A stretch of 38,961 nt of DNA from an uncultured bacterium (GTDB lineage Bacteria; CAYJRR01). Where the stretch lies: positions 1-38,961 of the forward strand of contig CAYJRR010000030.1 of assembly GCA_964372275.1 (NCBI GenBank). The letters are read 5' to 3'. Positions 25,183-36,542 of this stretch are shown here, piece after piece. Each line of letters begins with the position of its first letter. The first letter of the stretch is position 1. The notes below the pieces were generated by a model. The model searched no databases, had not been told where the DNA came from, and saw only the letters and a list, made by a program, of their open reading frames with translations. Both the position numbers and the translations under genes were made by a program.

Positions 25183-26103
25183 CTAAGCCACGGTCGGCCC
25201 GCGGAGCCTGGCGATCTCGTCGCGGACGAGGCGTTCCAACGCGTCGGGGTCGAGCGACCGTGCCGACGCAGGACGCGGGAGGCTTCCCGGGCCGTCCCCG
25301 CACCGAGGCGTATCCGCGGCGGTCGCGATCGGGGGCTCGACCGTGGCCCGCGGCGAGCGCCTCGTCGAGTCGGCGTCTGTGTCGGCGCCCCGCAGCGACT
25401 CCGAGGGACGACTCTGGGAGCCGGCTGCACGGGCGAGGGGCCCGAGTCCCGCGGCCGCGCGCTTCTGGAGGAGCGTCGCGACGTCGGCTTCGGGGAGTCG
25501 GTTGACGCGCCCGAGCTGCCGCGCCGCAAGCTCGATCGTCGCCAGGTGCTCCACCAGCTCGACGCGCAGGTACGCCTGCTCGACGTCGACGCCGACGGCG
25601 ATCACGCCGTGGTTGGCGAGCAACGCCGCGTCGGCGTCGACGAGCGCAGCCGCCAGCCCCTCCTCCAGCGCGGGGCTCCCGGGAAGGGCGTAGCCGACGA
25701 GCGGCGCCCCCGGACCGAGCGAGACGATCGCCTCGGCGAGGATCGGCGTCGTCAGCGCAAGCCCCGCGACGGCGAAGCCGGTGGCGGTGGGAGGATGGGC
25801 GTGCACCACCGCCTTCGCGTCGGCGCGCTCGCGGTAGCAGCGCAGGTGCAGGTGCAACTCCGAGAACGGCTTCCCCGCGGTTCGCTGCCCGTCGAGGAGA
25901 TTCCCGTCCGCCGATAGGAGAAGCACGTCGTCCGCGCCGATCAGGCGCTTGGATACGGCGGTCGGCGTGGCCAGGATCCGCCCGTCGTCGAGCCGGACGG
26001 TGACGTTCCCGTCGTGGTTCGCGGCCCAGCCGCGCTTCCACAAGAGCCTCGAGGCCGATGCGATCGCCTCCCGCAGCCGCTGCTCGTCCGCCGGCAGCGT
26101 CAC
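25183..26103 (-). CDS. Class II aldolase/adducin-family protein (fuculose-/rhamnulose-phosphate aldolase-like) with a C-terminal extension
   Basis: A ~215-aa aldolase core with metal-binding His residues (ELHLHLRCY...VVHAHPP...LANHGVIAVG). A ~90-aa disordered Pro/Ser/Ala/Arg linker follows. A terminal amphipathic helix (LDPDALERLVRDEIARLRG) closes the protein. GTG start in a GTGA overlap with the upstream stop. Confidence 0.85.
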   Translation of the reverse strand: MTLPADEQRLREAIASASRLLWKRGWAANHDGNVTVRLDDGRILATPTAVSKRLIGADDVLLLSADGNLLDGQRTAGKPFSELHLHLRCYRERADAKAVVHAHPPTATGFAVAGLALTTPILAEAIVSLGPGAPLVGYALPGSPALEEGLAAALVDADAALLANHGVIAVGVDVEQAYLRVELVEHLATIELAARQLGRVNRLPEADVATLLQKRAAAGLGPLARAAGSQSRPSESLRGADTDADSTRRSPRATVEPPIATAADTPRCGDGPGSLPRPASARSLDPDALERLVRDEIARLRGPTVA

Positions 26104-26420
26104 GCCCGGCCTCCCGGACCGCGGCGGGCGGCGCCGTCGAGCACCGATCCGTCCTCCATCTCCACCCGGTCGACGACCGCCATCACCACCGCGTGGATCG
26201 GATCGCTCTCCTTCCCCGCAAGCTGGCGCGCGGTGTTCCCTTCGCGCGAACAGAGGACGGTGTCACCGGGTCCGGCGCGGACCGTGTCGACCGCCAGGAA
26301 CAGGCGGCCGGCGTCCTTCCCCTTCGCGTCGATCGGCTGGCAGACGAGGACGATCTTTCCGTCGTAGCAGGCGTGCTTCTCCACCGCGACCGCGTTGCCG
26401 GTGATGCGCGCGAGGATCAC
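26100..26420 (-). CDS. BMC vertex (pentamer) protein, EutN/CcmL/PduN family (BMC-P)
   Basis: VILARITGNAVAVEKHACYDGKIVLVCQPID...GDTVLCSREGNTARQ matches the EutN_CcmL fold. The GTG start overlaps the stop of the upstream BMC-P (GTGA). The rest of track ORF 26100..26588 is Arg-rich extension. Confidence 0.8.
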   Translation of the reverse strand: MILARITGNAVAVEKHACYDGKIVLVCQPIDAKGKDAGRLFLAVDTVRAGPGDTVLCSREGNTARQLAGKESDPIHAVVMAVVDRVEMEDGSVLDGAARRGPGGRA

Positions 26421-26752
26421 GGCCGGTCTCCGCCGGGTTTCGTCCGGGCCTTCCGGGGTCCGTCCGCCAGGTCCGTGGCGTAGATCCCTTCGGCGAAGAT
26501 CTCCTCGGCGATCGCCACCACCGCGGCGTCGACCGGGACGAACGTCTCCGGCAGCGCCAGCGCCGCCTCCCGTCCGCCGACCCACCACACCACCTGTCCC
26601 GGCCCGGCGCTGAAGCGATCGGCCACGACGAACGGTTCTCCCACCGGGAGCATCGTCGTATCGACCGGCTGCGCCAGCAGCAGCTTCACCCCTTCGAGGC
26701 CGGGCGACTTCCGCTCGGCGACGACCGTTCCCAGCACGCGCGCCAGTTCCAT
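26417..26752 (-). CDS. BMC vertex protein, EutN/CcmL family (BMC-P)
   Basis: MELARVLGTVVAERKSPGLEGVKLLLAQPVD...PFVVADRFSAGPGQVVWWVGGREAA. The start ATG lies 23 codons inside track ORF 26417..26821. Confidence 0.8.
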   Translation of the reverse strand: MELARVLGTVVAERKSPGLEGVKLLLAQPVDTTMLPVGEPFVVADRFSAGPGQVVWWVGGREAALALPETFVPVDAAVVAIAEEIFAEGIYATDLADGPRKARTKPGGDRP

Positions 26753-26783: not shown

Positions 26784-27362
26784 TCATCGCCGCCCCGTGA
26801 GGTTGGCGACCAGGTCGGCATGCGGCCGGGGGATCAGCTCCACGCCGACGAGGAACCCGTCCTGCTCGGCTCTCGCTTTCGCCGCGGCGACCGCCGCTTC
26901 CAGATCGGCGTGCGGCCCGGTCAGCGTGAAGTAGCCCTTGCCGCCGATCCCGTGGCCGAGGCGGATCTCGATCACCCGCACGTCGGCCGTCTTGGCGGCG
27001 ACGTCGGCGGCGGCGACGGTGGTGGCGAGGGAGAGCATCTCCACGATTGCCAGGGCGTCGACGTCGGGCACCTCGATCCTGCGACCGAGCGCGGCCACGA
27101 CGTCGGGGTGGACTTGCGGGAGGATCATCTGGTTGATCACCGTCGCGCCGCCGAGCGCCTTCCCTTCGGCGAGCGACTCCTCCACCGCCGCCACCTCGCC
27201 GGTGAAGACGAAGAGGTACTTTCCGGAGGAGACCGGCTCGGCGATCCGGACGGTGACCGGCGCGCGCTTGCTGACGGCATCGAGCACGCGCGCGCCGCGC
27301 CCGATGCTCGACAGCTCGAGCAGCGCGAGGGCCGGATCGGAGGACGGGGAGGCCGCGGGCAT
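26784..27362 (-). CDS. Tandem-BMC-domain shell protein (BMC-T)
   Basis: A 192-aa product with two BMC domains (ALALLELSSIGRGARVLDAVSKRAPVTVRIAEPVSSGKYLFVFTGEVAAVEES; ALAIVEMLSLATTVAAADVAAKTADVRVIEIRLGHGIGGKGYFTLTGPHADLEAAV). The start ATG lies 43 codons inside track ORF 26784..27491. Confidence 0.8.
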   Translation of the reverse strand: MPAASPSSDPALALLELSSIGRGARVLDAVSKRAPVTVRIAEPVSSGKYLFVFTGEVAAVEESLAEGKALGGATVINQMILPQVHPDVVAALGRRIEVPDVDALAIVEMLSLATTVAAADVAAKTADVRVIEIRLGHGIGGKGYFTLTGPHADLEAAVAAAKARAEQDGFLVGVELIPRPHADLVANLTGRR

Positions 27363-27433: not shown

Positions 27434-28537
27434 GTGGCGCACGGGAAGGCGGTGGTCTGGTCCCCGGTGAGCTACGAGCCGGGTCGCCCATGGCTGTGGA
27501 GCCGCCCGATCGACCGCCTGTTCGTCGCCGGCGGCGGCTTCTTCCTCGTCGCGGCCGTCCTCGTGCCGCTTTCGCTGCTGCCGTCGGTCGGCCCTTCGCT
27601 CAACGCGCTGCTGCTGCACCTCTCGGTTCTGGTCAACTACCCGCACTACACCTCCACCTACCAGGTGATCGTCCGCGAGCGGGAGCGCCGGCCCGCAAGC
27701 TTCCGGACGCTCCTCTGGAGCGCCTTTCCGATGGCGGCGCTCCTGGTCGTCGCCGGCCGGTGGCCCGACCTCCTGTGGGGGGTCGTCGTCCGGGGCTACC
27801 TTACCTGGTCGGCCTACCACTACGCCGCGCAGCACTTCGGGATCGCCGCGATGTACTGCGCGCGCGCGGGGACGCCGCTGGGCGCCCGCGAGAAGGGACC
27901 GTTGCAGGCGGCCTTTCTCGGCGTCGGCGGCTTCATGATGCTGATGGCCAACACCGTCGGAGGCGACGCCGACCTGGCCGCTCGCGTCGTGGGGCTGACC
28001 GAAAACGGCGGGGAGGTGCCGATCGCCGGGTTTCCGTCGTGGATGTACGGCGTCGGCCTGGCCCTGGTCGCGGCGAGCGGCGTGGCGTTCGCCGTGGCCG
28101 AGCGGCGGTTCGCCGCCCGCACCGGACGGACCTTCCTGCGCGAGGTCTGGATGTTGTTCGCGACCAACCTCGCCTGGTTCGTCGTTCCGAACCTGCGCCT
28201 GCCGGGGGGAGAGGGTTGGATGTGGCCCGGTCTCGCCCTGTGCCTGTTGGGCCTGCCGCCGTTCTTCCACGGGCTCCAGTACATGGCGGTGACGGGCCAC
28301 CGCAGCCGGACGACCGGTCCGGTCCGTCCGATCTGGCTCTTCGCCGGACTGGTGGCCGCAGGCTATCTGTTGTTCCACGGCCCGGTGCCGCTCCTGCCGG
28401 CGATCGCGCCCGTCGACGCTACACGGGGGATCCTGCTCCTGGTGTCGGTGATCAACCTCCACCACTTCTGGATGGACGGCCTGATCTGGCGTCGGGCGCG
28501 CGTGGCGGCCCTCCCCGCGTCGCCGCCCGTGTCGTGA
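27434..28537 (+). CDS. Polytopic membrane protein of unknown function (about eight TM helices)
   Basis: A 367-aa product rich in Trp/Tyr/His-containing hydrophobic helices (LNALLLHLSVLVNYPHYTSTYQ; WSAYHYAAQHFGIAAMY; LLLVSVINLHHFWMDGLIWRR). It is divergent from the BMC-T gene. The opposite-strand ORF 27137..28465 is Arg-rich junk. Confidence 0.55.
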   Translation: MAHGKAVVWSPVSYEPGRPWLWSRPIDRLFVAGGGFFLVAAVLVPLSLLPSVGPSLNALLLHLSVLVNYPHYTSTYQVIVRERERRPASFRTLLWSAFPMAALLVVAGRWPDLLWGVVVRGYLTWSAYHYAAQHFGIAAMYCARAGTPLGAREKGPLQAAFLGVGGFMMLMANTVGGDADLAARVVGLTENGGEVPIAGFPSWMYGVGLALVAASGVAFAVAERRFAARTGRTFLREVWMLFATNLAWFVVPNLRLPGGEGWMWPGLALCLLGLPPFFHGLQYMAVTGHRSRTTGPVRPIWLFAGLVAAGYLLFHGPVPLLPAIAPVDATRGILLLVSVINLHHFWMDGLIWRRARVAALPASPPVS

Positions 28538-28540
28538 TCC

Positions 28541-29335
28541 CTAGCGGCTGATGCCGACGCTGGGCCCGCCCGAGCCGGAGTTGGCGGGGCCGATCGTCGG
28601 AGGACGGCGCGGCAGCGGCGCCGTCACCACGGTCGTGTCGCCGCGTGCGACCTGCGATCCGGTGGAACGGTTGGTCGGGGCGAACCAGCCCGAGGTCTTG
28701 GAGCCGGTGAGCCAATCGAAGGCGCCCGCGGCGATGGGGAGCACGCTGCCGATGAACGACGCGGCGCCGGCCACCGTAGCGACCGTCGCGAGTACGCCGG
28801 CGGTGATTCCGACGGCGGCCCCTGCAGCCGCGACGGCCGGAAACGCGACCACCGCCAGTCCCCCGACGACTGCCGCCAGGGCGACGCCCGACGCGACGGC
28901 GGTCAGACCCGTGCGCCACTTTTCCGGCGTCGAGGCGTTCGGGTCCCGGATCGTGGTGTAGGCGACGGCGGCGTCGGCGCCGGCGAAGATCGCGTTGAAG
29001 ATGGGATTGATCCGGCCGAACGCCGCCGCGGCCTTTCCGGCGGAGGTGGAGATCCGGACGGCGAGCGGAATGCCGCGCTTCGCCCACTGGCGCGCGGCCG
29101 CGCGCCGGACCTGTCTCGAGGGGAACGAAGGACGGGTGACCCGTTCGATCCCCTTGAGGCTGTACTCGGTGGCGTCCTTCACGTCGTCGACGTTGGAGAG
29201 GCCGTTCCCGACGTCCTGGACCACCTGCAGCTCGGCCGGAAGCGACGGTTCCGGACGCTCCTGCGCCAGCGCCAGGACCGGCTCGGTGATCATCGTGACG
29301 GCGAGTCCGAGTGCGACCAGCGTGCGGTAGACCAT
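28541..29335 (-). CDS. Secreted or membrane-associated hypothetical protein
   Basis: An N-terminal signal-like segment (LVALGLAVTMITEPVLALAQE). A polar middle region. A C-terminal Ala/Gly/Val-rich hydrophobic block (about three helices). It is the last gene of the AldDH operon. A G9 tract lies 4 nt upstream of the ATG on the coding strand. Confidence 0.5.
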   Translation of the reverse strand: MVYRTLVALGLAVTMITEPVLALAQERPEPSLPAELQVVQDVGNGLSNVDDVKDATEYSLKGIERVTRPSFPSRQVRRAAARQWAKRGIPLAVRISTSAGKAAAAFGRINPIFNAIFAGADAAVAYTTIRDPNASTPEKWRTGLTAVASGVALAAVVGGLAVVAFPAVAAAGAAVGITAGVLATVATVAGAASFIGSVLPIAAGAFDWLTGSKTSGWFAPTNRSTGSQVARGDTTVVTAPLPRRPPTIGPANSGSGGPSVGISR

Positions 29336-29523: not shown

Positions 29524-30969
29524 CTACACGATTCGGAAATACTCTTTCAGCGTGCAGCGCCGTTCGCGGGTGAAGTTGCGGACGGTGGTCAGTCCCTCGC
29601 CGGTGGGGCTGGCGATGGTGAAGGAGGTGTAGCCCTCTCCGCCGTAGCCGAGGCCGGCGAAGTTGGGGGCGTTTTTCACGTAGATCGAGCAGTCCATCAC
29701 GCGCGCCATGGTGTGCAGCGCCTCGATGTTGCGCGAGTACATCACCGCCGTGTGGCGGTAGCCGTGCTCGACGCGCTTGGCCATGGCGATCCCTTCGGCG
29801 GCATCGCGCACCCGCACCAGCGGCAGCACCGGCATCAGCATCTCGTTCTGCACGAACGGGTGGGTCTCTCCGTCGACCTCGACCAGGATGGTGCGCGGAT
29901 CGCCCGGCACGGGATGGTCGATCCGCTCCAAGATGAGCCGCGCGTCCTTGCCGACCCAATCCTTGTTCGGGTGGCCGTCCTTGAGCACGACCGACTCCAG
30001 GCGCTTGGTGAGCGCCGGCGGGAGGAGATAGGCGCCGTGCTCGGTCATCTTCTGCTTGAGCGTGTCGGCGATCCTGTCGACCGCCAGGATCTCCTTCTCC
30101 GCGGTGCAGATGATGTTGTTGTCGAGCGAGTGTCCGGCGACGCAGCCCGCCGCCGCGCGGTCGAGGTCGGCCGTCTCGTCGACGACGGCCGGCGGGTTCC
30201 CGGGTCCGCCGGCGATCGTCTTCTTGCCGGAGGCCATCGCCGCCTTGACCACCGCCGGCCCGCCGGTGACGACGAGCAGCTGGATCCCCTTGTGCTTCAT
30301 CAGGGCGGTGGCCGAGTCGAGCGTCGGCTCGGCGATCATCGTCAGCACGTTCGCCGGTCCGCCCGCGCGCACCGACGCCTCGTTCATCAGGTTGACCGTC
30401 TTCGCGCAGCACCCTTTGGCGTAGGGGTGCGGGTTGAAGACGACGCTGTTGCCGCCGGAGACCATCCCGATCCCGTTGTTGATGATCGTCTCGGTCGGGT
30501 TGGTGGTGGGGGTGATCGCGCCGATCACGCCGTACGGGGCGCGCTCCACCAGCATCAGTCCGTCATCGCCGGAGTAGGCGATCGGCTCCAGGAACTCCGG
30601 GCCGGGGGTCTTGTCGATCACCAGCCGGTTCTTGATCCGCTTGTCGGAGGCTCGTCCGAGGCCGGTCTCCTTCGGCGCCCATTCGGCGAGGAGATCGACG
30701 TGATCGCGGAGCGTCGACCGCATCTCCTCGATCATCCGCTTGCGGACCTCCAGCGGCGTGCGGGCGAGCTCGCCGTGGGCCTGCTTCGCCGCCGCAATCG
30801 CCTCGTCGAGGGTCTGGAAGACGCCGCCGTTCCGGTAGTCGATCTCGTCCGGCGCGACCGGGGTGCGCGGGCGGGCCGCCGGGGCCTGGCCCTCGGTCGC
30901 CAGACGCGAGACGACGTTCTCGACGATCTGCTGGATCTGGGCGCGGTCGAGGGGCAGGGCGGCGGGCAT
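29524..30969 (-). CDS. CoA-acylating aldehyde dehydrogenase (PduP/EutE-like) with an N-terminal encapsulation peptide
   Basis: Aldehyde dehydrogenase fold with the catalytic Cys region (DNNIICTAEKE) and a Gly-rich NAD site (VVTGGPAVVKAAMASGKK). The N-terminal amphipathic helix (LDRAQIQQIVENVVSRL) is followed by a Pro/Ala linker. Confidence 0.9.
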   Translation of the reverse strand: MPAALPLDRAQIQQIVENVVSRLATEGQAPAARPRTPVAPDEIDYRNGGVFQTLDEAIAAAKQAHGELARTPLEVRKRMIEEMRSTLRDHVDLLAEWAPKETGLGRASDKRIKNRLVIDKTPGPEFLEPIAYSGDDGLMLVERAPYGVIGAITPTTNPTETIINNGIGMVSGGNSVVFNPHPYAKGCCAKTVNLMNEASVRAGGPANVLTMIAEPTLDSATALMKHKGIQLLVVTGGPAVVKAAMASGKKTIAGGPGNPPAVVDETADLDRAAAGCVAGHSLDNNIICTAEKEILAVDRIADTLKQKMTEHGAYLLPPALTKRLESVVLKDGHPNKDWVGKDARLILERIDHPVPGDPRTILVEVDGETHPFVQNEMLMPVLPLVRVRDAAEGIAMAKRVEHGYRHTAVMYSRNIEALHTMARVMDCSIYVKNAPNFAGLGYGGEGYTSFTIASPTGEGLTTVRNFTRERRCTLKEYFRIV

Positions 30970-30975
30970 CGGTGG

Positions 30976-31284
30976 CTACGCTCCGCCCGCTTTCTGGTAG
31001 AGGCGCCCCTCGCCGGTCTCGATCTCGTCGACGATCGCCATGATCACCGCGTCGCAGGGGCGGTCCTTGGTGGCGGCGGTCTGGCGCGCCGAGGAGCCGG
31101 TGGCGTAGAGCACCACCTCGCCGACCCCGGCGCCGACCGAATCGATCGCCACCACCATCCCCGAGCCGTCGACGAGCCCGCCGTCTTTCGTCGCGAGGTT
31201 CTTCACGACGTGGAGGCGCAACCCCTCGAGCTTTTCGTCCTTCTGGGTGGCGATCACCGTCCCGACGATGCGTCCGAGCTGCAT
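30976..31284 (-). CDS. BMC vertex protein EutN/CcmL/PduN family (BMC-P), third paralog
   Basis: MQLGRIVGTVIATQKDEKLEGLRLHVVKNLATKDGG...VVLYATGSSARQ. Confidence 0.85.
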   Translation of the reverse strand: MQLGRIVGTVIATQKDEKLEGLRLHVVKNLATKDGGLVDGSGMVVAIDSVGAGVGEVVLYATGSSARQTAATKDRPCDAVIMAIVDEIETGEGRLYQKAGGA

Positions 31285-31295
31285 CGGGACGGACC

Positions 31296-31610
31296 CTACT
31301 TCTTCCCGCCGACCACGCGCGCCGCGCCCGCCCCCGCGCGGCCGAGCGGCAGCGCGTCCTCGATGGCGTCGTGCGGCCGCGGAATGACGTGGACGCTGAC
31401 CAGCTCGCCGACGCGTTGGGCTCCCTTGGCCCCGGCCTCGGTGGCGGCCTTCACCGCCGCAACGTCGCCCCTCACGATCGCGGTCACGTAGCCGCCGCCG
31501 ATCTTTTCGTAGCCGATCAGCTCGACCTTCGCGGCCTTCACCATCGCGTCCGAGGCCTCGACCATCGCGGCGAAACCCTTGGTTTCGATCATCCCGAGCG
31601 CTTCTGCCAT
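31296..31610 (-). CDS. BMC hexamer shell protein (BMC-H, PduA/CcmK-like)
   Basis: [60 protein letters not shown]...VHVIPRPH. This is the canonical BMC domain. An AGAGGGA RBS sits 9 nt upstream. The start ATG lies 68 codons inside track ORF 31296..31814. Confidence 0.9.
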
Positions 31611-31624
31611 TGTCGTTCGTCCCT

Positions 31625-32248
31625 CTATTTCTCTTTGCCGGTGAGGTTTTTCAGCGCGTTGACCGCCGCCTCCGCCGCGCTGTCGATCTCGGCCTCGGGG
31701 CCGCCGAGGTAGAGACGGCCGAAGGCGCCGAAGAGCGTGGCGTCGATGAGCGTGACGTCCGCCGCCTTGAGCGCTTCGTTGGCGGCGTAGGCGATGTAGC
31801 CCGCCGGCTCGCACTCCAGGATGAAGAGCGACTGGCCGGCGATCAGCATCGACCCGAAACGGATCCGGTTGATCAGCTGCGTGTGGTACTCCTCGACGCC
31901 GCGGATGATGGTGTTGGAGACGATCCGCGGCTTGATCCGGTCGTGCTCGGTCACCTCGAGCTTTCCGAGGATCGCCTGGCCGGCGGCCACCACCTCGCCC
32001 TGTTCGGCGTGGTGCAGCTCCAAGAGGCCGAAGGCGCGCTCCACGACCATGATCGCGGGGGCCGCCTTGGTCGCCTTGAGCCCCGTGTCGAGCAGGCGGT
32101 TGATCGCCATACCCGGCGCCGTCTCGATGAAGAGCGACGCGTCGTGCGCGACCGGGAGGAAGCCGCGGGCGGTGGTCCCGATGAAGGCCGAGAGCTGTGG
32201 CTGGAGGCTGTCGAGAAAGACGTAGGTGCGCAGGGTTACGTCGGCCAT
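31625..32248 (-). CDS. Tandem-BMC-domain shell protein (BMC-T)
   Basis: A 207-aa product with two BMC-like domains ([45 protein letters not shown]...; [57 protein letters not shown]...). Confidence 0.85.
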
Positions 32249-32337: not shown

Positions 32338-34980
32338 TCACTCCCGGAGCATCTGCGCGAAGCGGGCGGCGACCTCCGGTCGTTCGGTGAGGACGGTGGC
32401 CCAGGCGCCGAGGCAGGCGGCGTAGCGCTCGGCGGACATGCCCGACTGGCGGATCGTCTCGGCGAGGTCGCCGCCGGACATCACCGCCTTCATGAGGCGG
32501 ACGTATTCGCCAAGACTCTTCACCGGCTGGTCGGGGAGGATCGGCTCGGCGTCGAGGGGGAGCCCCGCGGAGGCGGGCGCAGGGGCGGCGGCGGGTGTAG
32601 GGGCGGGTGCGGGTGCGACGGCGTTCGCGAGGCGGTCCTGCACCAGCGCGCGGAGCTGCTCGTCGGCGCGGCGGGCGATCAGGGCGGCGGCTTCGGCTTC
32701 GCGGACGGCCGCGTTCTGCTTTTCGGCCGCGAGGGCGGAGACGGCGGCGCGCCAGCTGGTCGCTTCGGCGCGCGCGCGGGCGCGGATGCGCACGTCGCCG
32801 ACCATTCGCAGCGATTCGTCGATCCGTTCGCAGCTCGACCGGAAGGGGGCGGCGGAGGTCTCCTTCTTCGGGAGCGACGCCAGCAGGTGCGCGTGGAAAT
32901 TTCGCCAGCGGCGCTCGAACCGCTCCAGCGCCTGCGCCAGGCCGGTGTCGGTCGGATTCTGGTTGAAGCGCGGCACGAGGTCCTCGACGAACCGGCCGAG
33001 CGCGCCGAGGCGCTTCACGACGTCGGCGTCGCCGGTCTCGACGGCGTCGAAGAGGCTGTCGGCGAGCGGCGCCGTCTCCTCGGAGCGGATCCGGTCGAGC
33101 ACCCGACCGACGAGCTCGTAGAGCCGGCCGGGGTCGGCGCGGTACTGGACCCGGAACGAGGCCGCGGCGTCGGTCCCCTTGAGCGGCGTCCCCGGGAGGT
33201 CGCGGTCCCGCGCCTCGAGCAGCTCCGACGGGAATCCGGAGAGCGCGACCAGCACCGCATCGCGCTCGTCGATCCGGGTTCGGAAGCGATCCCAGAGCGC
33301 TTCGAAGACCGCGGTTCGCGCCGGCGTCGGATCGATCAGCAGGACGGCGATCCGGGAGGCCAACGTCAGGCGCGCCTCGGTCGCCGACCGGTCCCAGATC
33401 CCCATCAGGATCTGGATGGCGCGGAGGTCGGTCGCGCGACCTCCCGGATTGCACCGGGCGTGGAGCACGAGGAGTGCCCGGAGCGTCGGATCGGCCGTCA
33501 TCTCGTCGGCGACCAGCTCGTCGAGGAGCGCGCCCGCCTCGCGGCTGCGGGCGTTGAGGAGCCACCGCTCGAATCCGGGCCGCATGGCGCAGGCGGCCCT
33601 CTCCTCGGGCCGCAGGCCGCCGATCGCCGACGTCGCGGCCGCGGCGAACTGGGACACCTCGACGTCGTCGCGCGGTCCGGCGGCCGGGTCGGCCGGCGGC
33701 TCGGTCGCCCAGGTGAGGAGGTCGAGCACCCGGTCGAGTCCGAGCGCGCGCGCGCTCCCCATGACGAACCGGCCGAGGAAGGCGCGGCAGGGCTGGTCGA
33801 AGTCGGCGAATCGAGCGTCGCCGCGCAGCCATCGGAACGCGGCCTCGCGGTACGCGTCGTCGGCGCGCAGCGTCCCCTGGAGCAACGCTTCGAGGGTGAC
33901 CACCGGTACCGGGTGTCGAAGTCCGCGCAGAACCGCGATCCGCAGCTCCTCCGGCCCGGAGGCGAGCCACCGGGCCACACGCGGGCTGCGGCGGCGCGCG
34001 AGCGACGTCAGCGCCAGCTCCAGCTTCGGCGAGACCCCTTCGTCGACGACGGCGGCGAGCGTCGCTTCGTGTCCGAGGGCCAGCGCGCAGGAGAACGCCA
34101 GGTCGGGATCGGGCCATTCGAGCCCTTCGCGCAACGGCCCGTCGAGCTCACTCGGATCCTCCGGGTCGGCGAGCGAGCAGGCGGCGGCGGCCCACGGGCG
34201 GAGGAGCGGATCCTCGAGCGCGGGCCGTGCGACGTCGGCGACGCGCCGGAGGTCGTCCGGACCGAGGCGTGGCACGAAGCCGTCGGTCGTGGGCACCTCG
34301 CGCATTCGCCACGAGCCCAGCGCCATCGCCGCCTCCAGCGCCAGGCCGATCGGCTCCGCGGCGTGCAGGCTCTTGCGCGCGGACTCGACGCGAGGCTCGG
34401 TCACGCGCCCCAGGCGGAGAAGCGCGATCGACGCCAAGGCCGCGGTCAGTTCGTCGGGGCTCGAGGCGGCGATCGTCTCCAACAGATCGTCCGCGCCGGG
34501 CGTGAAGGGTCCCTGCGGTCCGCTGCCCGCGAAGGCGAGCGGCTCCTCCCGCAGGGGCAGCGCCTGCATCCAACCGTCTTCAACCACCTCGGCCCATCCG
34601 GGGAGGAGCAGGTAACCTTCGCAGAAGCGCGCCTCCTCCACCCGCACGGCGATCCGGTCGGCCTGCCGCGCGTGGATCGCCGCCAGCGATTCGAGCTGCG
34701 ACGGCGTGAGGGACTGCAGCCGACGCTCGAGCGTCAGGCGGGTGGCGCCGTCGGCCTTCAGCATCCGGGCGACGCCGTACGACGCGGCGGGGACGAGCTT
34801 GCAGCCGCACGAGCGGCAGAAGGTCCCGGTCGACCAGCCGGCGCACCACGGGCAGCGCACCTCCTCGACGAAGGCCCCTCCGCAGGCGACGCAGGGTCCG
34901 GGGCGCCCGGTATCGCCGTCCGCCGGGCCGCTCCCCGTCGGGCTCGCTCCGCACGACTCGCATCGGAAGCGGGAGATCAC
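32338..34980 (-). CDS. Large alpha-helical protein with an N-terminal double zinc-ribbon, paralogous to the upstream gene
   Basis: GTG start in a GTGA overlap with the upstream stop. N-terminal CxxC...CxxC...CxxC...CxxC cluster (CESCG, CVACGG, CPWCAG, CRSCGC). About 800 aa of helical sequence follow. The C-terminal ~60 aa ([56 protein letters not shown]) are homologous to the C-terminus of gene 34977..36542. The remaining ~900 nt of track ORF 32338..35886 is Arg-rich, probably non-coding extension. Confidence 0.55.
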
Positions 34981-36542
34981 GTCCGCTCCGGTCCCGGCCC
35001 GCGCAGGATCTGGCCCATGCGCACCGCCAGCTCGGGCCGGCTCTTCAGCACCCGTCCCCAGGCCGACATGCACCGGGCGTAGGCCGAGAAGTCCATCCGG
35101 TGCGCGACCAGCAGCTCGTCGACCGATCGGCCGGTGGCGAGATCGTCGAGGAAGGCGAGGTAGCGGCGCAGCGTCGGAAGCGGCTCGGCCGGCAACACCG
35201 ACTCGTCCTCGAGAGGAAGGCCGTCGCGCTCCTGTGCCGCCGCGTCCTTCCGCCGTTCGATCCGATGCGTGTCGTCCTTCGCCGGGGACCGCGGCCGGCC
35301 GGGGTCGGTCGGAGCGTTCGCCCGCGCGCGATCGATCTCCGCCTCGAAGCTCTCCAGGACGACGAGGAGGGCGTCCCGCTGTCCGGGTTGCTCCTGGTAC
35401 CGCTTCCAGAACGCCTCGAAGAAACGGCGGCGGTCGAGCAGGAATCCTCGGCTCCAGCCGGCGGCCAGGGCACGCGCCATGGCCGGTCGGCCTCCTTCGG
35501 AAGCGCGGTCCCAGATCCCGAGCGCCAGGTCGAGCGCCGTCGGCGGCTCCACCACGCCGAGCCGGCCGGCGAGGGCGTGCATCGCGGCGAGCGCCCGGAA
35601 CAGCCCTTCCGCGACGCTCGGACTCGGGTCGGCCGCCCAGTCGTCGAGGACCGACGCCTCCTCGGGCCCATGGGCGGCGAACAGCCACAGCGTGAACTCT
35701 TTTCCGAACAGGCGGGCGCGTTCCTCGGGCCGTGCGCGCTTCAGCAGATGGGTCGCAGCCCGGACGATCGGACGGGTTGTGTCGTCGAAGCGGGGCGGCT
35801 CGCCGTCGACCCACGCCGCGCGCCGCAACGCGGAGAGCGCCTGGCCGGCGTCGATCGAGGCCTCCCGCGCCCGGGCTTCGAGCCAACGCCCCAGGAGGAT
35901 CGTTCGTTCGGGCGGAAGCCGGTCGAGCGTTTCGCGGTCGAACGCGATCTGCAGAAGCTCCCTCCGGACGTCGGCGTCCCCGGGATCGCGGTCGAGCAGG
36001 CGATCGACCTCTGCCGCGCGGTCCTCGCCGGACGGGGGGTTGGCGGCCGGGCGCGCGGCGGACGCCTCCCGCACGGCGATGTCAGGGTGGCGGGAGGCGA
36101 GCGAGTCGACGGTGGCGCGCTGCGCGGTGGTCAACCGGAGATCCGCGATCCGCAGGTAGGCGTCGAGGCGGGTGGTGGGAAGCGGATGGCTGCTCATCTG
36201 ACGGACCAGCCATTCGAACTCCTCGGGATCGGGCGCCCCCCGGAACGGGAGACGGCGGAGCGCCTCGATGAGAAGGGCGGCCCGCTTGGGATTGTCGCGG
36301 GCCACGTCGACCATGCGGCGGAAGGCGATCTCCCCTCCCACGTCGACCCGCGCCACCAGCTCCGGGATGCGTTCGCGGACCCCTTCGGTCTCGAGCGCCA
36401 CCGGCAGCTGCGCGAGGAGGCGCGCAATCTCGTCCTGGCTCACGGTGACGAGCGCCCGATCCCCTCCCGCGCGGAGGCGCTCGGCCAGCTCGCGGATCTC
36501 CCCGTCGGCGGGGCGCACGGCCTGCGGCATCTCGCGGCCCAT
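34977..36542 (-). CDS. Alpha-helical protein of unknown function, shorter paralog of the zinc-ribbon protein
   Basis: A 521-aa product. It shares internal blocks with the downstream gene (LALGIWDRASEGG / [13 protein letters not shown]; ALLVVLESFEAEIDRAR / [17 protein letters not shown]). It shares the C-terminal domain (LRRYLAFLDDLATGRSVDELLVAHRMDFSAYARCMSAWGRVLKSRPELAVRMGQIL). An alternative ATG start is at 36530. Confidence 0.55.
   Translation of the reverse strand: MGREMPQAVRPADGEIRELAERLRAGGDRALVTVSQDEIARLLAQLPVALETEGVRERIPELVARVDVGGEIAFRRMVDVARDNPKRAALLIEALRRLPFRGAPDPEEFEWLVRQMSSHPLPTTRLDAYLRIADLRLTTAQRATVDSLASRHPDIAVREASAARPAANPPSGEDRAAEVDRLLDRDPGDADVRRELLQIAFDRETLDRLPPERTILLGRWLEARAREASIDAGQALSALRRAAWVDGEPPRFDDTTRPIVRAATHLLKRARPEERARLFGKEFTLWLFAAHGPEEASVLDDWAADPSPSVAEGLFRALAAMHALAGRLGVVEPPTALDLALGIWDRASEGGRPAMARALAAGWSRGFLLDRRRFFEAFWKRYQEQPGQRDALLVVLESFEAEIDRARANAPTDPGRPRSPAKDDTHRIERRKDAAAQERDGLPLEDESVLPAEPLPTLRRYLAFLDDLATGRSVDELLVAHRMDFSAYARCMSAWGRVLKSRPELAVRMGQILRGPGPERT

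Follow-up and report, generated by a model that had tools for sequence, protein, structure and literature searches.

The encapsulation peptide (EP) of bacterial microcompartments (BMCs) is said to have been defined by Kinney in 2012, and in 2014 Lassila reportedly recruited proteins to shells of the Haliangium ochraceum (HO) type by a predicted targeting peptide. For the structure and engineering of BMCs the principal model is the HO shell, whose native cargo, function and effective targeting peptides are poorly defined. EPs often load HO shells poorly (PMC6056538), and in a 2024 preprint the HO encapsulation peptides were called 'unknown'. The EP definition used here and the statistics of EP linkers are those of Aussignargues et al. 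2015 (PMC4594438). On class II aldolases, C-terminal EPs have been reported for the PVM, PVM-like, GRM5, ACI and SPU5 types and 'possibly' for one in three HO aldolases (PMC8217296, PMC4594438), in agreement with the initial annotation of the DNA studied here, which had stated that such peptides occur in a few BMC types.

We analyzed a stretch of 38,961 nucleotides from an uncultured bacterium (contig CAYJRR010000030.1), referred to as the window. It encodes an aldehyde dehydrogenase (AldDH) and a class II aldolase. In our judgment it is likely that each of these enzymes carries an EP, in the form of a helix of ~15-19 residues with one hydrophobic face and a flexible linker, within a type II locus of the HO compartment, and that, by analogy, these peptides would serve in cargo loading.

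Shell genes and layout of the locus

Six shell genes were found within the window, namely one BMC-H, three BMC-P, one BMC-Ts and one BMC-Tdp (Table 1). Together with the two enzyme genes they form two adjoining modules on the minus strand, the first composed of BMC-Tdp, BMC-H, BMC-P and AldDH and the second of BMC-Ts, BMC-P, BMC-P and the aldolase. By best-hit evidence, this is an HO-type BMC locus with the published 'type II' layout, and H. ochraceum structures were the best or near-best PDB matches of the shell proteins. HO type II as catalogued by Sutter et al. 2021 (Nat Commun, PMC8217296, Supplementary Data 2) has the same shell set, related to Hoch_5812 and Hoch_5814-5816, and an AldDH with an N-terminal EP, and its main locus, like the window, groups a pfam00596 aldolase with two BMC-P genes. 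The locus studied here differs from it by two ORFs without a family match between the modules, 28541-29335(-) and 27434-28537(+), and by the absence from the window of a second Tdp (the Hoch_3341 equivalent), which the catalogue expects in a satellite locus (PMC8217296). In addition, its aldolase has a C-terminal extension that only about one third of HO aldolases have.

Table 1. Shell genes, enzymes and predicted peptide features of the locus, in the order of the two modules.
Feature	Coordinates	Strand	Evidence
BMC-T, double-stacking permuted type (Tdp), HO-5816-like	31625..32248	minus	PDB 5v74 HO-5816, E=1.3e-79
BMC-H, HO-5815-like	31296..31604	minus	PDB 5djb/5v74 HO-5815, E=1.1e-40; PF00936
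BMC-P (pentamer), first of three	30976..31284	minus	PF03319, E=4.4e-26
AldDH, acylating, PduP/EutE type, 481 aa	29524..30969	minus	PF00171, NF011927
AldDH predicted N-terminal EP helix, residues 7-25 (LDRAQIQQIVENVVSRLAT)	30895..30951	minus	AlphaFold2, homologues, HMM, helical wheel
AldDH linker, residues 26-47 (EGQAPAARPRTPVAPDEIDYRN), Ala/Pro/Arg-rich, poorly conserved	30829..30894	minus	pLDDT, homologues, composition
BMC-T, standard tandem type (Ts), PduT/HO-5812-like	26784..27362	minus	PDB 3nwg 1.3e-38, PduT ~1e-30, HO-5812 5dih 2.1e-28
BMC-P, second of three	26417..26752	minus	PF03319, E=9.6e-23
BMC-P, third of three	26100..26420	minus	PF03319, E=1.6e-20
Class II aldolase/adducin-fold enzyme, 306 aa	25183..26103	minus	PF00596, FucA structures, invariant residues
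Aldolase predicted disordered linker, residues 230-283, 54 aa, rich in Ala/Arg/Ser/Pro	25255..25416	minus	pLDDT, occupancy, composition
Private 16-aa insert in aldolase linker, residues 236-251 (SLRGADTDADSTRRSP)	25351..25398	minus	occupancy, GC3, Logan contig
Cys island PRCGDGPG in aldolase linker, residues 266-273	25285..25308	minus	homologue alignment
Aldolase predicted C-terminal EP helix, residues 284-300 (LDPDALERLVRDEIARL), then 6-residue tail RGPTVA	25204..25254	minus	AlphaFold2, conservation, HMM

A related locus, L083, has the gene order Tdp-H-P-AldDH-PduS-Ts-P-P-aldolase-PKD with both EPs present. Compared gene by gene, it is 66-86% identical to the window, the downstream PKD gene being 54% identical. 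Where the window has the two unmatched ORFs, L083 has a PduS homologue; a PduS remnant was sought between the two modules of the window and none was found. The neighboring PKD protein of the window has a MYXO-CTERM-like end, which together with the HO-type shell suggests that the contig comes from a member of the Myxococcota. A search of genome contigs gave no relative above ~54% identity, and H. ochraceum was not among the matches.

Terminal helices of the two enzymes

Translation of the AldDH gene yielded a protein that begins with MPAALPLDRAQIQQIVENVVSRLATEGQAPAARPRTPVAP and whose residues 7-23 are LDRAQIQQIVENVVSRL, an exact match to the peptide quoted in the initial annotation, while translation of the aldolase gene yielded a protein ending in ...SLDPDALERLVRDEIARLRGPTVA; the peptides and coordinates given earlier for both enzymes were thereby reproduced. 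The PduP/EutE-type model NF011927 of NCBIfam matched the AldDH with 639.6 bits (cutoff 403), and as the profile spans residues 8-481, the helix is included in it. The best PDB matches were the BMC aldehyde dehydrogenases 5jfl and 4c3s, and the catalytic Cys288, invariant in the homologue alignment, aligned with the region around the catalytic Cys in 5jfl. AlphaFold2 predicted a helix at residues 9-25, followed by pLDDT values below 50 at residues 26-38 and a catalytic core beginning at about residue 48-49. The helix is kept in 116 of the 120 AldDH homologues, where positions 12, 15, 16, 19, 20 and 23 are nearly always I, L, V or M, and the linker varies among them in both length and sequence. 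These data support the AldDH N-terminus as a predicted PduP-type EP, the reading proposed in the initial annotation, and the Pro/Ala linker that had been described after the helix corresponds to the Ala/Pro/Arg-rich segment in Table 1.

The aldolase core was matched by PF00596 at residues 13-191 (E=2e-44). All sequences of the homologue alignment share E82, H101 and H103, and at least 90% share H165, so the Zn ligands and the catalytic Glu are predicted to be intact, and judged from the conserved catalytic residues both the AldDH and the aldolase look active. Against the NCBIfam equivalog models (L-fuculose-1-phosphate aldolase etc.) the aldolase scored at best 81-112 bits with cutoffs of 250-400, which places it at the superfamily level only. 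Its start codon is GTG, preceded by a GGGAGG Shine-Dalgarno sequence, and overlaps the end of the third BMC-P gene by 4 nt. At the other end of the protein, AlphaFold2 predicted a helix at residues 286-300 with pLDDT 80-91. This helix is kept across a variable linker in 103 of 120 homologues, and the hydrophobic positions 289, 292, 293, 297 and 300/301 are conserved at ~88% occupancy.

On helical wheels, the hydrophobic residues of each helix fall into one arc of 140-280 degrees, made up of I12, I15, V16, V19, V20 and L23 in the AldDH and of L289, L292, V293, I297 and L300 in the aldolase. The hydrophobic moment at 100 degrees (Eisenberg, Fauchere-Pliska), calculated over the full 17-mers, placed neither peptide above its shuffles; the same was true of what we take to be the Salmonella PduP peptide. 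The helical wheel and the maximum moment over 85-105 degrees were adopted after this null result. With the latter, the AldDH peptide reached 0.57 (p=0.010) and the aldolase peptide 0.55 (p=0.049) against 10,000 shuffles. The amphipathic signal is a period of ~4 residues that arises from alternating hydrophobic/polar pairs, a motif described for Pdu signal sequences (PMC12108088). A helical wheel and a disorder prediction were among the checks that the initial annotation had named; the former gave the single arcs, and the low pLDDT at AldDH residues 26-38 and aldolase residues 230-285 fits flexible linkers.

EP HMMs were built from homologues, excluding the sequences of the window itself, and searched against all its six-frame ORFs. 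The AldDH N-terminus was the sole significant match of its HMM (E=2.8e-9), and the aldolase C-terminus was the best match of the other (E=2.5e-4, the next being ~0.05); no other credible EP-bearing cargo or adaptor was detected with either HMM among these ORFs. In the frame called for each gene, GC3 was 0.83-1.0 across both linkers and both helices. When the AldDH and aldolase EPs were compared with each other's HMM, scores of 2.3 and 2.8 bits were obtained, which is no significant similarity. As far as their sequences tell, the two EPs share a pattern, without evidence of homology, and it is from this pattern that a binding site common to both may be inferred. Both peptides combine a predicted terminal helix of ~15-20 aa with amphipathic pairs and a poorly conserved flexible linker, as EPs do by definition. 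The C-terminal helix of the aldolase, put forward as a putative EP in the initial annotation, is thus supported as an EP in the bioinformatic sense, being predicted, amphipathic and conserved.

Linker of the aldolase

The FucA structures align with the aldolase up to residue 220, the conservation of the family extends to about residue 225, and confident helices continue to residue 229 in the AlphaFold2 model. The core therefore ends at 220-229, past residue 191, and the linker is ~54-62 aa long rather than the ~90 aa proposed at first, a figure apparently obtained by taking residue 191, where the Pfam match stops, as the start of the count. Residues 230-285 have pLDDT values of 53-66 and no predicted secondary structure, and the linker columns have low occupancy in the homologue alignment. 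Among the 103 EP-bearing homologues, linkers range from 8 to 123 aa and that of the window ranks fifth; in the 18 closest homologues the range is 26-48 aa. Published aldolase EP linkers are 23-81 aa long with a mean of 49 +/- 17 (PMC4594438). The linker had been called unusually long, and this holds in comparison with its close relatives but not in absolute terms, as it lies within the published range. No other linker of its immediate clade is as long, owing to the private 16-aa insert, whose columns have an occupancy of 0.02-0.24 among the 120 homologues and whose in-frame GC3 is 0.94.

The Cys island contains C268, the sole cysteine of the aldolase tail, and recurs as 'P.CGDGPG' in the homologues P0002, P0003, P0004 and P0015. 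A linker Cys is present in 53 of the 103 EP-bearing homologues, differently worded in other clades (VVACAPAPPG, EPGCP, CQVVQAP, ACDIP), and it goes with shell-gene adjacency in related aldolase loci. Among the Acidobacterial aldolases, EPGCP variants adjoin shell genes in 18 of 18 cases and EPG[R/N/S/M/L]P paralogues in 2 of 14. Published aldolase EP linkers contain 5.5% Cys, the highest value among the linker classes for which values were retrieved (PMC4594438); the word 'cysteine' is absent from the text of that paper. Compared with the published BMC aldolase EPs, the linker studied here stands apart by its clade-specific 'P.CGDGPG..PRP' island and its private insert. The conserved Cys island could conceivably be a second functional motif, specific to aldolases that are carried in compartments, perhaps a site that faces a shell tile or partner cargo and serves in docking, redox chemistry or metal binding, in which case the tether would not be merely passive, although we hold this to be rather unlikely.

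Alternative explanations and comparison with known systems

The relation between aldolase tails and compartments was assessed in 80 related loci, in which shell genes were recorded within 10 kb and EP-like tails were scored with a hydrophobic-pattern regular expression, as the EP HMM of the window clade was too specific for Acidobacterial and Latescibacterial tails. Shell genes were present in 47 of the 57 loci with a tail and in 11 of the 23 without (Fisher p=0.0045, uncorrected for phylogeny or satellite loci), which left ten EP-tailed aldolases with no shell gene within this distance. The 11 shell-adjacent aldolases scored as lacking an EP-like tail comprised four with tails that miss the motif and seven that are essentially tailless, the latter from Archangium, Myxococcaceae and other Myxococcota MAGs; in Archangium and Myxococcaceae the tailless enzyme lies beside two BMC-P genes. 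Consequently, linkage to a compartment does not strictly require the tail, and the tail is not strictly confined to aldolases with such linkage.

This incomplete association bears on the possibility that the C-terminal helix is an oligomerisation or regulatory element, which would hold the four C-termini of the tetramer together or cover the active site by folding back, its presence in a compartment locus being incidental. About eight Acidobacterial paralogues carry a very similar helix (ITRDELIALVDEALR...) with no shell gene within 10 kb, the aldolases of Archangium and Myxococcaceae lie beside BMC-P genes without any tail, and a pLDDT of 80-91 is rather high for a free tethered peptide. However, compartments of these types often have satellite loci (PMC8217296), so non-adjacency is no proof that a paralogue lies outside the compartment system, and the tails are enriched beside shell genes in the survey described above. 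Moreover, the ~55 residues that precede the helix are of low confidence and vary from 8 to 123 aa across homologues, so a tether fits better than a structural element, and the helix shares the alternating-pair pattern and its register with the AldDH EP of the locus and with Pdu EPs. An oligomerisation or regulatory role is therefore improbable in our view.

The helices of both enzymes might instead act in cargo-cargo condensation only, by hydrophobic self-association, while another factor recruits the cargo to the shell. Proteins that bear an EP do aggregate if they are produced on their own, and the loading of HO shells by EPs is inefficient (PMC4594438, PMC6056538, PMC8872734), and the HO system was described without a known shell-binding partner in the 2024 preprint. 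We nevertheless regard this as quite improbable, given that contacts between EPs and shells have been reported for PduP with shell proteins and for CcmN with CcmK2 (summarized in PMC4594438) and that the HMM search over the ORFs of the window revealed no further EP-like adaptor. By far the least probable explanation is that the aldolase extension is an artefact of annotation or assembly, such as a read-through, a frameshift or a chance ORF in DNA of 70% GC. High-GC DNA indeed keeps many long spurious ORFs open in the window, but 103 of 120 homologues keep the terminal helix in frame, the aldolase linker and helix have a GC3 of 0.83-0.94, and a Logan contig that was assembled independently codes for exactly the same 306-aa protein. 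On these three grounds an artefact origin is effectively refuted.

We therefore favor the reading in which both helices are EPs. The AldDH would carry its helix at the N-terminus on a ~22-aa tether and the aldolase at the C-terminus on a ~54-62-aa tether. By analogy with PduP, PduD and CcmN, the hydrophobic faces of the helices would cluster the two enzymes into a cargo core, and the helices may also dock on the lumen-facing side of hexagonal shell tiles, upon which the shell would close round the cargo. The aldolase would then be the likely aldehyde-generating signature enzyme, cleaving a ketose-1-phosphate-like substrate, and the co-packaged AldDH would turn the aldehyde into acyl-CoA within the shell. 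The locus lends support to the view that, in some HO compartments at least, the signature enzyme that produces the aldehyde is the aldolase. With six HO-like shell genes beside both candidate cargo enzymes, the contig is a compact natural case that makes matched peptide-shell pairs available for tests of native loading.

EPs of the PduP/EutE type, found on the 'type II' BMC AldDh (IPR012408), consist of the same ~17-aa N-terminal helix and short disordered linker in front of an acylating core, although the peptide of PduP itself differs in sequence from that of the window AldDH, the pattern alone being shared. In contrast to the PduP/EutE systems, the locus has no PTAC or alcohol dehydrogenase partner, and its metabolosome core is thus incomplete. 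The EPs of BMC class II aldolases likewise form a ~17-aa C-terminal amphipathic helix after a non-conserved linker, in which, as in the window, small and hydrophilic residues abound and cysteine occurs (PMC4594438). The aldolase of the window is from a different clade than those of PVM and the other types; the catalogue has a separate HMM for HO aldolases, and ACI is described as the type most similar. The phosphates of fuculose and rhamnulose are the substrates of PVM aldolases, whereas the window aldolase reaches no equivalog cutoff. Taken together, the feature is real and, the length of the aldolase linker apart, had been read correctly in the initial annotation, and, with no new mechanism or principle involved, it represents a known arrangement that is already part of the 2021 BMC catalogue.

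Organization of the locus and its relatives

The microcompartment locus lies on the minus strand of the window, which has a GC content of about 70% and contains numerous spurious ORFs. Pfam assigned six shell genes (see table), the same number as claimed in the initial annotation. Among PDB entries, the BMC-H matched HO-5815 (E = 1e-40) and was closer only to an engineered BMC-H tandem fusion, HO-5816 was the top match of the first BMC-T (1e-79), and the second, PduT-like BMC-T matched HO-5812 at 2e-28. At the sequence level, the shell proteins match the model shell of Haliangium ochraceum (HO).

Features of the microcompartment locus and its surroundings
Feature	Position	Strand	Source
Large paralogous ORF	34977-36542	-	
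Large paralogous ORF	~32338-34900	-	
BMC-T (first)	31625-32248	-	Pfam
BMC-H	31296-31604	-	Pfam
BMC-P	30976-31284	-	Pfam
Aldehyde dehydrogenase (AldDH)	29524-30969	-	Pfam
ORF between modules, without Pfam or NCBIfam match	28541-29335	-	
ORF between modules, without Pfam or NCBIfam match	27434-28537	+	
BMC-T (second)	26784-27362	-	Pfam
BMC-P	26417-26752	-	Pfam
BMC-P	26100-26420	-	Pfam
Class II aldolase	25183-26103	-	Pfam
PRCGDGPG motif of the aldolase tether	25285-25308	-	
PKD-domain protein, 524 aa	23442-25016	-	

A close relative, locus L083, is syntenic (Tdp-H-P-AldDH-PduS-Ts-P-P-aldolase-PKD, where Tdp and Ts are the double-stacking permuted and standard tandem BMC-T). It carries both terminal peptides. 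Individual genes of the locus share 66-86% identity with their window counterparts, and the PKD gene downstream shares 54%. The two differ between the modules, where L083 has a PduS-like flavoprotein gene and the window has two unassigned ORFs, one membrane-protein-like and the other with a signal-peptide-like N-terminus; no PduS remnant was present between the window modules. The modules were also found singly, Ts-P-P-aldolase in locus L081 and Tdp-H-P-AldDH in locus L082. The PKD-domain protein downstream of the aldolase is syntenic with that of L083, and the partial match of its C-terminus to the myxosortase-dependent (MYXO-CTERM) family points to a Myxococcota origin of the contig. Both large ORFs upstream of BMC-Tdp are homologous to a 916-aa gene adjoining the HO locus in L082 (a homologue with no Pfam match on record); they may represent a conserved neighbour of the HO locus.

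Terminal helices and tethers of the two enzymes

The AldDH begins with MPAALPLDRAQIQQIVENVVSRLATEGQAPAARPRTPVAPDEIDYRNGG. It passed the NCBIfam PduP/EutE-type model (639.6 bits, cutoff 403), the profile of which aligned from residue 8 and so covered the N-terminal helix. The closest solved structures are the microcompartment acylating aldehyde dehydrogenases 5jfl and 4c3s, and the crystallised core of the latter begins at AldDH residue 48. AlphaFold2 (59 homologues) modelled a helix at 9-25 and a stretch with pLDDT below 50 at 26-38; its confident core begins at about residue 49. The helix was kept in 116 of the 120 best homologues; nearly all that bear it have I, L, V or M at positions 12, 15, 16, 19, 20 and 23 and polar residues in between. 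Neither the length nor the sequence of the linker behind it is constant. When a segment HMM built without the window sequence was run against all six-frame ORFs of the window, the AldDH N-terminus was the sole significant match (E = 2.8e-9).

The aldolase ends in ...TPRCGDGPGSLPRPASARSLDPDALERLVRDEIARLRGPTVA. Its Pfam match stops at residue 191, but the fold goes on: FucA structures align up to residue 220, family conservation (KRxxAGLGPxAR) reaches about residue 225, and AlphaFold2 placed confident helices at 205-217 and 221-229, followed by 230-285 with pLDDT 53-66 and no secondary structure, and a helix at 286-300 with pLDDT 80-91. Depending on the choice of boundaries, this leaves a tether of 54-62 aa and not the roughly 90 aa of the initial annotation. 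The description of the linker as unusually long held in part. Alignment gives 62 aa, the greatest length in the immediate clade (18 closest homologues: 26-48 aa) and the fifth greatest among all 103; a private insert of 16 aa (SLRGADTDADSTRRSP) accounts for the difference. Such a length is, however, unremarkable beside the 23-81 aa published for aldolase EP linkers (mean 49 ± 17; helices 12-17 aa) (EP, encapsulation peptide; Aussignargues et al. 2015, PMC4594438). Judging from a called-frame GC3 of 0.83-0.94 across linker and helix, an identical 306-aa protein encoded by a separately assembled contig and a similar in-frame terminal helix in 103 of 120 homologues, the extension is genuine coding sequence. 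The aldolase looks enzymatically active, as its Zn ligands and catalytic Glu are conserved (E82, H101 and H103 in every sequence, H165 in at least 90%). It fell short of every NCBIfam equivalog cutoff, with 3-oxo-tetronate-4-phosphate decarboxylase, ribulose-1-phosphate aldolase and FucA as its best partial matches.

Both helices had been described as amphipathic, and the helical wheels agree, each showing a single contiguous hydrophobic arc that runs from 140 to 280 degrees. The arcs share a register (I12/L289, I15/L292, V16/V293, V20/I297 and L23/L300, AldDH/aldolase), broken solely by the conserved Glu296. The 100-degree hydrophobic moment of each 17-mer was no higher than in shuffled controls, as was also the case for the Salmonella PduP peptide. 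Because of alternating pairs (I-QQ-IV-EN-VV-SR-L in AldDH, AL-ER-LV-RDE-IA-R-L in the aldolase), the moment spectrum peaked at 85-90 degrees, or roughly every fourth residue. The maximum moment at 85-105 degrees exceeded 10,000 shuffles (AldDH, p = 0.010; aldolase, p = 0.049), and PduP (p = 0.044) and PduD (p = 0.007) behaved similarly. No homology between the two peptide families was detected by cross-HMM comparison (2.3 and 2.8 bits); what they have in common is, on this comparison, a pattern and not ancestry.

Shell-gene linkage and the tether cysteine

Linkage was surveyed in 80 related aldolase loci of species-representative genomes. A shell gene was found within 10 kb at 47 of 57 loci with an EP-like tail and at 11 of 23 without (Fisher p = 0.0045, uncorrected for shared ancestry). 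Exceptions occur on both sides. About eight Acidobacterial paralogues (L008, L018, L021, L028, L043, L060, L072 and L073) carry an EP-like C-terminal helix (ITRDELIALVDEALR...) with no shell gene within 10 kb; these paralogues may be distal cargo genes, or a different function of the helix may be at play. Seven Myxococcota aldolases (L019, L023, L031, L039, L047, L052 and L054, from Archangium, Myxococcaceae and unclassified Myxococcales/Myxococcota MAGs) adjoin one or two BMC-P genes, end directly after the core (...GLGPKKP) and lack the C-terminal helix, in agreement with the catalogue, which gives the extension for no more than about one HO aldolase in three.

Within the otherwise variable tether, PRCGDGPG (residues 266-273) forms a conserved cysteine island. 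Of the 18 closest homologues, four share the motif P.CGDGPG..PRP. A linker cysteine occurs in 53 of 103 EP-bearing homologues, in other clades as VVACAPAPPG, EPGCP, CQVVQAP or ACDIP. Among tailed aldolases, 37 of 38 with a tail cysteine were adjacent to shell genes versus 10 of 19 without (phylogeny not controlled), and in the Acidobacterial group the figures were 18/18 for EPGCP and 2/14 for EPG[R/N/S/M/L]P paralogues (Fisher 4e-7, phylogeny-confounded). Published aldolase linkers contain 5.5% Cys, the highest among the linker classes with retrieved values, and the word "cysteine" is absent from the text of that paper (Aussignargues et al. 2015, PMC4594438). We regard this sequence-based link between linker cysteine and shell adjacency as a lead, not a finding.

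Predicted cargo role and comparison with known systems

The helix-tether-core anatomy, helix conservation, shell context and intact active sites are established by this analysis. If they act as in PduP, PduD and CcmN, the hydrophobic faces of both helices would drive cargo clustering and dock the cargo on the lumenal face of the shell tiles, and the probably aldehyde-producing aldolase would in this way be packaged with the aldehyde-consuming acylating dehydrogenase. The initial reading of a PduP-type N-terminal peptide on the AldDH and a C-terminal one on the aldolase was essentially correct, and both are predicted EPs.

EP-based loading of HO shells was inefficient in engineering work (PMC6056538), and HO EPs are called unknown in a 2024 preprint. 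The locus is mainly of use as a natural supply of HO-type shell and EP parts that are cleanly matched to each other. The arrangement with both peptides is already catalogued and not new in kind: for BMC class II aldolases, EPs at the C-terminus were described by Aussignargues et al. 2015 (PMC4594438) and have been noted for ACI and SPU5 too. The layout of the window fits the HO type as defined by Sutter et al. 2021, of which type II has the aldolase and two BMC-P in the main locus (PMC8217296).
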